A stretch of 64,000 bases of DNA, from positions 1 to 64,000 of the forward strand of contig JBBRLQ010000027.1 of the NCBI GenBank assembly GCA_038231275.1, written 5' to 3'. Made by a program: the position numbers and the translations under genes. This DNA comes from Polyangiales bacterium (GTDB lineage Bacteria; Myxococcota_A; Polyangia; Polyangiales; Polyangiaceae). Of this stretch, positions 1 to 2,884 are shown one piece after another; within the stretch, counting starts at the first letter, position 1; every line of letters starts with the position of its first letter. The notes under the pieces are model-generated. The model ran no database searches, was not told the origin of the DNA, and was given only the letters and a program-made list of their open reading frames with translations.

Positions 1-130
1 AGAGACGACCTACTCTCCCGACCCGAGGCCACAACCCTGAACTGACCCCGAGAGAAGACGTCGCTTCGCTCCGATCGCCATCCGGCGTGCTGGGTGATCG
101 CGATGCGCCGAATTACCCGATCGCCATCGG

Positions 131-169
131 CGGGACGCGCACGCAGGTTCGAATCCTGCCGCCTAGACC
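131..169 (+). pseudogene. Orphan tRNA 3' half (tRNA-Pro-like)
   Basis: Perfect T-arm GCAGG-TTCGAAT-CCTGC (143-159), then CGCCTAG-A-CC (G72/A73 as in tRNA-Pro), preceded by CGG-GA. No matching 5' acceptor strand within 1-130. Confidence 0.5.
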
Positions 170-186
170 GAGAGCACACGACCCGC

Positions 187-259
187 GCGGTGCTCGTGCT
201 CTGGTGAGCACACCTGCTCGACAAGCAGGACCAGGCAGGTTCGATCCCTGCGCGCCGCA
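187..259 (+). tRNA. tRNA-Val(GAC), atypical (C33)
   Basis: Acceptor GCGGTGC/GCGCCGC-A, D-stem GTGC/GCAC, anticodon arm CCTGC-TCGACAA-GCAGG, T-arm GCAGG-TTCGATC-CCTGC. No encoded CCA. Confidence 0.85.
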
Positions 260-274
260 CTGCATTTTCGATAC

Positions 275-350
275 GCCGATGTAGCCCAACTGGCAGAGGC
301 CGCAGTTTCAGAAACTGTGTGGAGTGAGGGTTCGAATCCCTTCGTCGGTA
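275..350 (+). tRNA. tRNA-Leu(CAG) with short variable region
   Basis: Acceptor GCCGATG/CGTCGGT-A, anticodon arm GCAGT-TTCAGAA-ACTGT, 7-nt variable region, T-arm GAGGG-TTCGAAT-CCCTT. Confidence 0.85.
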
Positions 351-384
351 CCGCGCTCACGAGCGCGACACGTCACGCCTCCCT

Positions 385-468
385 GCCACTGTGGTGGAAC
401 GGCATACACGACAGGCTGAGAACCTGTGCTCCATCAGGAGTGTGAGGGTTCGAGTCCCTCCGGTGGCA
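385..468 (+). tRNA. tRNA-Leu(GAG)
   Basis: Acceptor GCCACTG/CGGTGGC-A, anticodon arm ACAGG-CTGAGAA-CCTGT, long variable arm GCTCC-ATCA-GGAGT, T-arm GAGGG-TTCGAGT-CCCTC. Confidence 0.93.
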
Positions 469-518
469 CTGATTTTTTTCGAAAGGAGCTTTCAACCAAC
501 AACCCAGTGAGATCCGTC

Positions 519-1025
519 ATGCGAACCCTGCTGCTCATGCCGTGGATGACCCCCCACAAAATCGTCTCTTGGCAACGCGCTGTCGTGCTCGTCGTCCTCG
601 GCAAGGCCGAGATCCTCGAGGAGTATGACGTGGCGCTCGGCCCCGTCGTCGACTTCAAGACGCCGTCGGTCGTGCGCCTCACCAAGGGGCACCCGATGCA
701 GAAGCGCGCGGTTCGCTTCTCGCGCCTCAACGTCTTCACCCGCGACGGCTTTCGCTGCCAGTACTGCGGCGTGAAGAAGGAGATGCGTGAGCTCAACTAC
801 GACCACGTGCTGCCGCGCGTTCGCGGTGGAAAGACCGAGTGGGAGAACATCGCCACCTCCTGCTACGGCTGCAACGATCGAAAGGGGAGCCGCACCCCAG
901 AGGAGGCCGGAATGAAGCTTCTCCGGAAGCCCTTCAAGCCGAAGTCCCTCCCGCTCACGCCTGCGTTTCACGTCGACGCGTCCGCGATCCCTCCCGCCTG
1001 GCATCCGTTCTGCCAGGTGGGGTGA
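519..1025 (+). CDS. HNH endonuclease (McrA/HNH_5-like) with PLMP-like N-terminus, 168 aa
   Basis: Motif RDGFRCQYCG...DHVLPRVRGG...N...SCYGCNDRKG. Start moved to ATG 519 (GTG 507 possible) because the track start overlaps tRNA-Leu. Confidence 0.9.
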   Translation: MRTLLLMPWMTPHKIVSWQRAVVLVVLGKAEILEEYDVALGPVVDFKTPSVVRLTKGHPMQKRAVRFSRLNVFTRDGFRCQYCGVKKEMRELNYDHVLPRVRGGKTEWENIATSCYGCNDRKGSRTPEEAGMKLLRKPFKPKSLPLTPAFHVDASAIPPAWHPFCQVG

Positions 1026-1073
1026 GCCGTCCGGACGCGCGCGTGCGCGAGCGTGATTCCCCACGCGGCCTCC

Positions 1074-1105
1074 GCCGTCCTGGCCCGAGACGCTAAACCG
1101 GGCCG
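1074..1105 (+). ncRNA. Putative H-type pseudoknot element downstream of the HNH gene
   Basis: CGTC(1076-79)/GACG(1089-92) and GGCCCG(1082-87)/CGGGCC(1099-1104) interleave, with an A-rich loop CTAAAC. Confidence 0.45.
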
Positions 1106-1131
1106 CTTACTTTTTCGTTTCAGTAGATTCG

Positions 1132-1176
1132 TTCGAACGAAACATGAGCCGAGGCTCGACTCACGTTTCGTTTGAA
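1132..1176. repeat. 17-bp imperfect inverted repeat with 11-nt spacer
   Basis: TTCGAACGAAACATGAG ... CTCACGTTTCGTTTGAA (2 mismatches, one a G-U pair), in AT-rich sequence. Confidence 0.75.
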
Positions 1177-1188
1177 TAGATCGCTTTT

Positions 1189-1275
1189 GGAAGACGAACT
1201 GGCCGAGCGGCCGGGCCTGTCTCGAAAACAGTGCGTGCCTCCGGGCATGGGGATCAAGACCTCCGGCTTCCGCCA
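1189..1275 (+). tRNA. tRNA-Ser(CGA), 8/4 fold, CCA encoded
   Basis: 8-bp acceptor GGAAGACG/CGGCTTCC (1 mismatch), G73, 6-bp D-stem CTGGCC/GGCCGG, loop CT-CGA-AA, V-arm GTGCC-TCCG-GGCAT, 4-bp T-stem with aberrant loop ATCAAGA. Confidence 0.8.
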
Positions 1276-1279
1276 ACCA

Positions 1280-1363
1280 GGAAACCGAGCCACGCGCGGG
1301 CGTGGGCCTGGCCGCTACCCAGCGCGTGCCTTCGGGCATGAAGTTCGACTCTTCCGGTTTCCG
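1280..1363 (+). tRNA. tRNA-Ser(GCT), 8/4 fold, C33
   Basis: 8-bp acceptor GGAAACCG/CGGTTTCC, G73, 6-bp D-stem CCACGC/GCGTGG, loop CC-GCT-AC, V-arm GTGCC-TTCG-GGCAT, T-arm GAAG-TTCGACT-CTTC. Confidence 0.82.
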
Positions 1364-1407
1364 CTCTTCTTCCGCTCTCCGTCGTTGGTGCCGAGTTTTC
1401 TCCTCCT

Positions 1408-1489
1408 GGGTCGGAGGCAGATACGGTTGGCTGCGCGTGTCCGTAAAACACGTCCTTTCCCGGTGGGGGTTCGAATCCCTCCCGACCCA
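1408..1489 (+). tRNA. tRNA-Tyr(GTA), atypical (A8, C33)
   Basis: Acceptor GGGTCGG/CCGACCC-A, D-stem GCAG/CTGC, anticodon arm CGTGT-CCGTAAA-ACACG, T-arm GGGGG-TTCGAAT-CCCTC. Confidence 0.85.
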
Positions 1490-1498
1490 CAGAGAACG

Positions 1499-2884
1499 TC
1501 ATTCACGGGCGGCGGGTGACGCGCGCTTCTCGACGCGCTCGATCTTGCCCCTCGTCAGGAAAATAAACCTGGCCACGAGGACGAACGCGACGATGACGAG
1601 GCCGAGCGTCAATCCCCACCACAGCCCCGGCGCGCCGAGACCAACGCCGAAAGCGAGCCAGAGCGCGATGGGTAGGCCGATCACCCAGTAGGCCACGAGG
1701 TTCGACAGGAACGCGAACCGCACGTCGCCCGCGCCGCGTAGGGCGCCGGACGCGACGCCTTGCACACCGTCGAAGAGCTGAAAAACAGCGGCGATCATGA
1801 CGAGCTTGGCGCCGAGGGCGACGACGCGATCGTCCGGCGTGAAGAGGCCGACCAAGCCGGCCGGGATGAGCGCGAAGACGACGGCGCCGATCGTCTGCAG
1901 ACCGCCACCGAGCGCGATGCCAAGGAGGCCCGTGCGGCGCGGAGAGACGCCCTCGCCGACGGCGTGCCCCACGCGGACGGACGTAGCGGCGCTGACGCCG
2001 AGCGACGCCATGTACGTGAAGCTCGCGAGGCCGATGGCCACTTGGTGAGCGGACGCCGGAACCTCACCGAGCCGGCCCGACACCAGCGCGACGAGCGAAA
2101 AGATGCCGAGCTCCGCGAAGAGCTGGAGGCCGACCGGCAGGCCTACCCGGAGCGTCGTGCTCACCGGGACATGCTCGCTCGCTGCGCCGGCGTTGCGTGC
2201 GCGCGCGGCGCCGAGCGCGATGGCGACGAGCACGATCTCGGCGAGGGACGTGGCGAGGCCCGCGCCGAACGCGCCGAGCGCCGGAAGACCGACCGCAGGA
2301 AGACCGAGCGCCACGAGGACCCCATCGCCGCGCACGAGCAGGTTACAGACGACCCAATTCATCAGGTTGGCGACGAGCGCCGCCACCAGCGCCGGGCGCG
2401 CGCTTCCTCGTGCCTGCAAGTACGTGCGCGCCGCGATGTACGCGCCGTAGAGGCCGAGCCCCGGGAGCTGCCCCGTCAAATACCAGCGCGCGCGGATCGT
2501 GATCTCGTGCGAGACGCCCATCGGCTCGAGCAGGAACGTGATGCCCATTCCCAGGAGGGCGATCGGGATCCACGTGAGTGCGATCGCCTTCAGCGTCGCC
2601 TTGAGGGCGCCCCACGCGCGACCGGTTTCTCCTGCGCCGAGGGCCTGCGATGCGAGCGGCTCGAGGCCCATCCCGATTCCCATCGAGATCGACGCGACGC
2701 CGAAGCCGATCGAGCGCCCGATCGTCGCGCCGGCGAGCTCCGTCACCGAGACGCGGCCGAGAACCGCCGTGTCGACGAGGCCCATCGATACGAGCAGCAT
2801 CTGCGCAGACGTGACGGGCCACGCGAGGCGCGCGAGCGTGGCGAGCTCGCTGAGAGCGGTCCCTCGGGGGGAGTCAAGAGGCAC
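1499..2884 (-). CDS. MATE family efflux transporter (NorM-like)
   Basis: LAWPV...MGLVDTAVLGR, QLFDGVQGVASGALRGAGD, about 12 hydrophobic segments. Confidence 0.92.
   Translation of the reverse strand: MPLDSPRGTALSELATLARLAWPVTSAQMLLVSMGLVDTAVLGRVSVTELAGATIGRSIGFGVASISMGIGMGLEPLASQALGAGETGRAWGALKATLKAIALTWIPIALLGMGITFLLEPMGVSHEITIRARWYLTGQLPGLGLYGAYIAARTYLQARGSARPALVAALVANLMNWVVCNLLVRGDGVLVALGLPAVGLPALGAFGAGLATSLAEIVLVAIALGAARARNAGAASEHVPVSTTLRVGLPVGLQLFAELGIFSLVALVSGRLGEVPASAHQVAIGLASFTYMASLGVSAATSVRVGHAVGEGVSPRRTGLLGIALGGGLQTIGAVVFALIPAGLVGLFTPDDRVVALGAKLVMIAAVFQLFDGVQGVASGALRGAGDVRFAFLSNLVAYWVIGLPIALWLAFGVGLGAPGLWWGLTLGLVIVAFVLVARFIFLTRGKIERVEKRASPAARE

Follow-up and report, generated by a model that had tools for sequence, protein, structure and literature searches.

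The closest described relative of the locus analyzed here is the trn operon of Anabaena/Nostoc sp. PCC 7120, a tandem, same-strand run of redundant isodecoders that is induced by translational stress and from which 23 of 26 tRNAs are charged (PMC8421152). We studied a 64,000-nucleotide stretch of a Polyangiales genome (the window), which opens with part of a similar array. Judged from its sequence, this array belongs with the L-arrays described in PMC8421152: it is long and tandem, it adds redundant isodecoders to the 42 housekeeping tRNAs of the genome, and it is linked to an HNH endonuclease gene. The likeness extends to the HNH protein, which in a homology comparison has a relative adjoining the Anabaena operon, and to RtcB or TROVE genes near homologues of the window array. 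The two loci differ in that the HNH gene lies beside the operon in Anabaena and inside the array here. They also differ at position 33 of the anticodon loop, where some tRNAs of the window array have C in place of U. None of 24 tRNAs called in the Anabaena array (GC 0.44) has C33, and there is no Val-GAC or Gly-GCC among them; neither "C33" nor "U33" occurs in the searched text of PMC8421152.

Other described systems resemble parts of the locus. The window tRNA-Ser(GCU) shares with the (8/4) tRNA-Ser, or allo-tRNA, an 8-bp acceptor stem, a 4-bp T stem, a long D stem with a tetraloop, a long variable arm, and G73 (PMC5389517); it differs in being the usual serine form of myxobacterial arrays (37 of 40 genes) and in having C33, which is absent from the class as described in that source. 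Nuclease-insensitive phage tRNAs (PMC10264068), such as the T5 tRNA-Lys confronting the PARIS nuclease AriB (PMC12409363), are likewise accessory tRNAs whose anticodon loop differs from that of the host copy, and C1 mycobacteriophages have a Val-GAC with C33, printed in PMC10264068 with no comment on base 33 in the text found. However, the array here is chromosomal, the proven escape sites lie at other positions than 33, and neither colicin E5 nor gamma-toxin is blocked by U33C. Natural, functional C33 is also found in the initiator tRNA-Met of multicellular eukaryotes (PMC5041475, PMC8887486), but this is a P-site tRNA for which the t6A machinery is relaxed toward C33, whereas the array genes encode bacterial elongators, treated in the same two sources as invariantly U33. 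We found no paper in the open-licence literature that describes C33 in bacterial, array, or phage tRNAs.

RESULTS

The window is the start of one contig (C27) of the source genome, and another contig (C12) ends with the remainder of the array. Together they hold 31 tRNA genes on the same strand, 27 of which were found by two finders and 4 by eye (Table 1). The two contigs probably join within the array, as indicated by a tRNA-Pro(CGG) whose halves lie on either side. This gene is cut in its T arm by an insertion sequence with subterminal repeats (window 1-167 and L081:13806-14000, the end of C12), which by its features is IS21-like. The element is multicopy, with its end sequence recurring at the ends of five other contigs (labeled C2, C13, C33, C37, and C72), and it broke the assembly between C12 and C27. 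Elsewhere, the array contains a long hairpin (L081:12188-12290), and a structured leader precedes its first tRNA (L081:10880-11110). Matches of the window HNH protein in PADLOC were partial, covering the HNH domain only, and were rejected. In the source genome, rtcB is not beside the array but on contig C18, and TROVE had no match at an E value of 1e-20.

TABLE 1 Array features at the start of the window
Feature	Position	Strand	Details
Insertion sequence, right end	1..141	.	TG...CA ends, 6-bp direct repeat on both sides
tRNA-Pro(CGG), 3' part (T arm, acceptor strand)	142..167	+	Pairs with 5' part (U33) at end of C12
tRNA-Val(GAC)	187..260	+	C33 at 219; 6-bp D stem, 4-nt loop, A73; cloverleaf z = -3.5
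tRNA-Leu(CAG)	275..352	+	U33; short variable region (7 nt); ARAGORN, Rfam, base-33-blind finder
tRNA-Leu(GAG)	385..469	+	G34 with U33; ARAGORN, Rfam
HNH endonuclease gene inside array	519..1025	+	168 aa; Pfam HNH_5, E = 4.5e-15
tRNA-Ser(CGA)	1189..1275	+	U33; by eye: 8/4-type fold, unusual T loop, encoded CCA; missed by ARAGORN
tRNA-Ser(GCU)	1280..1363	+	C33 at 1313; 8-bp acceptor, 4-bp T stem, 6-bp D stem with tetraloop, long variable arm, G73
tRNA-Tyr(GUA)	1408..1490	+	C33 at 1442; G1-C72, A73; last array gene

A sequence-only reading of the window had singled out C33 in three array tRNAs, and all three loops were confirmed, each on a paired anticodon stem: TCGACAA (Val, 219), CCGCTAC (Ser, 1313), and CCGTAAA (Tyr, 1442). 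ARAGORN calls Val-GAC and Tyr-GUA, and the Rfam model RF00005 places both in the standard register; Ser-GCU, which ARAGORN does not call, was called only by a structure finder blind to base 33. A DNA contig of sequencing run X1 showed 0 differences from window positions 150-1520. Since this contig may be the source of the window itself, homologues are the better argument against sequencing error. Over the whole array, C33 was found in 5 of 31 tRNAs (Val-GAC, Ser-GCU, Tyr-GUA, Ala-GGC, and, on C12, Gln-CUG), compared to none of the 42 housekeeping tRNAs in the source genome, defined as dispersed genes that pass a canonical filter (Fisher P = 0.011). All five have a housekeeping twin with U33. 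A relaxed ARAGORN search of the whole source genome returned 7,253 calls, mostly false, and was discarded. The further proposal that C33 tRNAs all carry G34 holds for the three named tRNAs, and G34 is enriched, but it fails as a rule: Gln-CUG combines C33 with C34, and the 12 array tRNAs with G34 divide into 4 with C33 and 8 with U33, such as Leu-GAG (385-469).

The window Ser-GCU has the 8/4 fold of PMC5389517 and is thus not degenerate. Its 8:65 pair is G-C, and 49:65 is U-C. Among 40 array serine genes (loci L001-L072), 8:65 was Watson-Crick in 37, with G-C (23) and A-U (14) covarying, and 49:65 in 2. Array serine tRNAs of myxobacteria mostly escape ARAGORN. Some array Tyr genes may also be 8/4 folded; 8:65 is Watson-Crick in 7 of 17.

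We gathered homologous loci by relatives of the window HNH protein (the best 80 of 462, mostly from Polyangiaceae and other myxobacteria), leaving out 33 HNH loci with fewer than 5 ARAGORN tRNAs. Among 708 distinct array tRNAs called by ARAGORN, base 33 was U in 622, C in 84, A in 2, and G in none. A finder bias toward C was ruled out on two counts. ARAGORN recovered base-33 variants about equally (554 with C, 518 with A, and 519 with G, of 622), and the finder blind to base 33 gave U in 557, C in 99, A in 6, and G in 4 of 666 tRNAs. Judged by eye, the 10 purine cases comprised about four real A33 tRNAs and register slips. When one array per lineage was retained from the HNH tree (28 arrays, 565 tRNAs), C33 was present in 69 tRNAs and a purine in 1. 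The tabulation of position 33 suggested with the original observation finds C33 recurring in homologous arrays, against none in the housekeeping tRNAs of the source genome.

Some array tRNAs were unusual in other ways. A33 was seen in Arg-GCG at L014:4525, L040:4354, and L042:5630. The Pro-GGG of Sorangium arrays (loop TCGGGGA; L032:5565-5759 and others) is nearly a copy of the adjacent Pro-CGG (TTCGGGA), and its loop can also be read as CGG shifted by one base. In Sorangium cellulosum So ce56, the tRNAs with C33 include Pro-UGG and Pro-GGG. One small group of odd tRNA-like genes (L112:1501-1745, genome G001) comprised an Arg-UCU with G33, a gene whose anticodon loop has 8 nt, and a Tyr-GUA that lacks a long variable arm.

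C33 was unevenly spread over anticodons. In the 28 lineages it was found in Val-GAC (9/10), Gly-GCC (10/20), Val-CAC (4/8), Ala-GGC (3/8), Glu-CUC (7/19), Ser-GCU (4/14), and Tyr-GUA (3/14), with zero cases among the 565 tRNAs in Lys, Trp, Cys, Met, Arg, Gly-UCC, and Leu-CAG. It accompanied G34 in 48 of 229 tRNAs versus 21 of 336 for the rest and C36 in 37 of 160 versus 32 of 405, while with U34 the counts were 6 of 115 versus 63 of 450; P values on array lineages are overstated, as the arrays are kin. The idea that C33 makes a loop free of U was rejected, for the anticodons CCG, CGC, CCA, GCA, CAG, and ACG all lack C33. In the 28 lineages C33 was not significantly depleted from t6A-class (12/145) or Q-class (12/81) tRNAs, and lost modification therefore does not account for all of the gaps.

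The enrichment with G34 and C36 would be expected if C33 tuned decoding, either by weakening or reshaping the U-turn against strong G/C codon-anticodon pairing or by stopping an unmodified U32/A37/A38 loop from zipping up, an idea in line with the extended-anticodon framework (PMC5041475). Anticodon stems of C33 tRNAs also have more Watson-Crick pairs (4.77 versus 4.49 of 5), and C33 was coupled to A38 in all six Val-GAC genes of one phylum sample (see below). However, those six genes are syntenic and may reflect one event, C33 co-occurs with A38, C38, and U38 alike, and C33 is missing from several strong anticodons (Arg-CCG, 0/17; Ala-CGC, 0/9; Ser-GGA, 0/9). We consider tuning rather improbable.

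C33 clumped by array beyond the expectation from anticodon mix (P < 0.0002; P = 0.012 without L002), and its share rose with the GC content of array tRNAs (ρ = 0.53, P = 0.004, among kin that are not independent). The share tracked none of C32, C59, C60, or loss of U8 in the 28 lineages, and its independence of C32, C59, and C60 gives no support to a general loss of U from loops. The pattern is specific to position 33. At other positions, U8 was missing from 191 of the 708 array tRNAs, mostly in favor of purines (A in 81, G in 89, C in 21), and U55 was replaced by G (55 cases) more often than by C (6 cases). Of 112 orthologue sets, 6 varied at base 33 (with differences between Sorangium strains among them) and 24 at base 32. 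In one array lineage, C33 reached 11 of 18 tRNAs (L001) and 13 of 21 (L002), with Asn, Thr, Phe, His, and Asp among them and no rise in U8 loss. In two genomes, the array contains or adjoins an EF-Tu-family gene (L001:2064-3299 and L011:602-1801; 81% identical to each other), which is possibly a partner for noncanonical array tRNAs.

A further possibility is that the C33 genes have no part in translation, as decoys or as pseudogenes in decay. The split proline gene and the missing U8 in array tRNAs might suggest decay, and of the 26 genes in the Anabaena operon, which has been proposed to act as a sponge, 3 are pseudogenes (PMC8421152). Against this, stem changes kept pairing in 21 of 25 cases in C33 tRNAs and in 431 of 533 in U33 tRNAs, identity elements are intact, C is the only base admitted, and 23 of the 26 Anabaena operon tRNAs, which have U33, are charged. 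C33 stems are thus kept as well as U33 stems, which places the genes under purifying selection; it does not follow that C33 itself is favored. The original claim that C33 looks selected rather than decayed accordingly stands in its second half: recurrence in homologous arrays, restriction to C, the uneven spread over anticodons, and the preserved stems argue against decay and error, but not for C33 being favored. The decoy function also proposed from the window is made unlikely by C33 in solitary canonical Val-GAC genes of other bacteria, and we give decoys and decay together very little credence.

We give as little to editing, in which C33 would be changed to U (or pseudouridine) after transcription and the gene left free to drift to C. 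Precedents are C8-to-U in Methanopyrus (CDAT8) and C32-to-pseudouridine in Vibrio (TrcP). A change almost exclusively from U to C and concentrated in some arrays fits an editor. Yet there was no deaminase among the recurrent array neighbors or 34 proteins scanned (an unlinked enzyme might still act), and the five PF00383 genes of the source genome are all on other contigs. A general editor would also not be expected to show an anticodon bias, and the housekeeping tRNAs of the genome with the 13/21 array have not drifted (C33 in 1 of 34, namely a Val-GAC whose contig is possibly foreign). Among 21 runs listed, only X1 (DNA) contained the stretch; the RNA-labeled runs X20 and X12 contained pieces of other organisms, with zero depth at 219, 1313, and 1442.

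Valine tRNAs with C33 were also found beyond the arrays. In the family of the source organism (121 genomes), housekeeping Val-GAC had U33 in 114 of 114 genomes with a match, and two C33 matches were extra copies. We then scanned 282 genomes in four other phylum samples, centered on records reading Bdellovibrionota, Acidobacteriota, Nitrospirae, and Desulfobacterales, with a canonical-tRNA pattern requiring C33 and allowing any anticodon. This pattern fits 13 tRNAs of the source genome and therefore samples part of each tRNA set. Genomes with a canonical C33 tRNA numbered 6 of 79, 4 of 81 (a sample including one unpublished genome, G365, as a U33 row in the denominator on which none of our claims depends), 0 of 61, and 5 of 61, respectively. 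All 15 such tRNAs were valine (14 Val-GAC and 1 Val-UAC); those of three samples are at loci L293-L302 and in genomes G499, G511, G512, G519, and G539. The 10 C33 Val-GAC genes that were checked were all solitary, in DNA of GC 0.33 to 0.63, and each was the sole Val-GAC match in its own (incomplete) assembly; Val-UAC might share the decoding load in these genomes. In one phylum sample, 6 of 6 C33 Val-GAC genes also had G38 changed to A in an otherwise identical gene, and the single-change form occurred in 0 of 74 matches.

In genome G001, a canonical C33 Val-GAC (L100:1501-1576) lies upstream of thrS on a contig weakly similar to the source genome; since G001 has another Val-GAC, with U33, this contig may not belong to the bin. 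We also weighed an internal -35 box (TTGACA in the U33 form of Val-GAC) as the cause of C33 and put it aside, as the housekeeping gene retains the box in 114 of 114 genomes and other isotypes would be left unexplained.

Mobile elements carry the variant as well. Viral contigs yielded 61 C33 Val-GAC loci versus at least 111 with U33, with a median flank GC of 0.51 versus 0.45. C33 was seen in 5 of 12 tRNAs of virus Rctr197k, 0 of 5 of phage Mx1, and 1 of 29 of a Pseudarthrobacter plasmid array (a Val-GAC). Of eight HNH loci on plasmids or phages, four (L083, L085, L086, and L089) had no tRNAs.

This convergence on Val-GAC, in the actinobacterial plasmid array, the 61 viral loci, and C1 mycobacteriophages (PMC10264068, supplementary file 2, row 9), is one reason to consider that C33 is an escape from enzymes that read the anticodon loop. 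The arrays recurrently neighbor RNA-repair genes (TROVE/Ro60 in 26 and RtcB in 5 of 82 clustered stretches; a Band-7 protein is another recurrent neighbor), C33 clumps at the array level, the Anabaena operon is induced together with toxin RNases (PMC8421152), and human EDN cuts a C33 loop less well (10.1101/815803). In our searches, direct U33C tests existed for two anticodon nucleases, and both point the other way. Colicin E5, whose targets include tRNA-Tyr, and the Kluyveromyces lactis gamma-toxin cut U33C like wild type (PMC1635277 and PMC2275089), and G33, which protects from both, was never found among the 708 array tRNAs in the ARAGORN set. The proven T5 escape from AriB lies at positions 39/41 and 16, not 33 (PMC12409363). 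Cleavage linked to Salmonella RNA repair maps to 36/37, not 33 (PMC7790460), and CdiA-CT EC536 cuts at 32/33 (PMC11724271), with no U33C test in the text found of that source. Our literature searches found no bacterial nuclease reading U33. Escape of this general kind is possible, though we doubt it. Its most specific form we hold to be unlikely: that some widespread bacterial enzyme, either an anticodon nuclease or a toxin that modifies tRNA, recognizes U33 in valine and some other G34/C36 tRNAs and has driven repeated, convergent U33C in phage tRNAs, stress-induced arrays, and sole housekeeping Val-GAC genes.

DISCUSSION

C33 in these tRNAs is real and nonrandom and occurs in a known type of array. 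It is not a proven defense against tRNA-cutting toxins and looks like a working, tolerated variant. Our preferred reading, to which we assign a probability of roughly 0.55, is that C33 is a functional variant, more or less costly according to the anticodon, which has spread in redundant copies through relaxed selection and GC pressure. The tRNAs of the window would then be working accessory tRNAs of an L-array that are made, charged, and used in decoding, with C33 probably near-neutral rather than favored, and C would be the sole substitute that the U-turn accepts. The cost would be near nil for valine (A35-C36), small for other anticodons with G34 or with C34-C36, and apparently too high in most tRNAs with U34 or A34 and in those for Lys, Met, Arg, Cys, and Trp. 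Where C33 is cheap, and with AT-to-GC pressure helping, it would build up in the redundant array copies, for which housekeeping isodecoders with U33 stand in; the main housekeeping copies would mostly remain U33.

Published work offers a structural basis for such tolerance. The U of a U-turn can be replaced by protonated C (PMC4105743), and the contacts of U33 to purine 35 and pyrimidine 36 use its 2'-OH and O2 (PMC5041475). C keeps both groups, from which we infer that valine anticodons are permissive. The substitution should nonetheless have consequences for modification. In Escherichia coli t6A synthesis is blocked by C33 (PMC8887486), and the TGT motif is U33-G34-U35 (PMC4425180), which C33 removes. 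As tgt is present in the source genome, we predict that t6A37 and Q34 are missing from the array Ser-GCU and Tyr-GUA with C33.

In favor of tolerance we count the C-only spectrum, the intact stems, the distribution over anticodons, the restriction of canonical C33 to valine, the U33 twins, and the correlation with GC. Against it, array Val-GAC has C33 in 9 of 10 lineages compared to U33 in 114 of 114 housekeeping matches of the family, and a U33C tRNA-Gln in yeast has a phenotype (PMC3664417). The 13 of 21 C33 tRNAs of L002, with U8 loss not raised, are poorly explained by drift. Drift alone is also insufficient for the clumping by array and for C33 at low GC, as in the Val-GAC of L293 (GC 0.33) and 16 of the 61 viral loci (GC below 0.45).

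Reviews hold U33 to be invariant in bacterial elongator tRNAs, and the natural C33 genes are exceptions. Near-identical housekeeping Val-GAC pairs with U33 and C33 are ready, matched substrates for measuring the role of U33. The scan blind to base 33 also reveals that some array genes escape tRNA finders. If a U33-reading toxin does underlie the valine pattern, the map of C33 would name the substrates and targets of a conflict system. If there is no such toxin, the finding would be a modest correction, with C33 a variant that is tolerated depending on the anticodon and is not to be read as nuclease escape without an assay.
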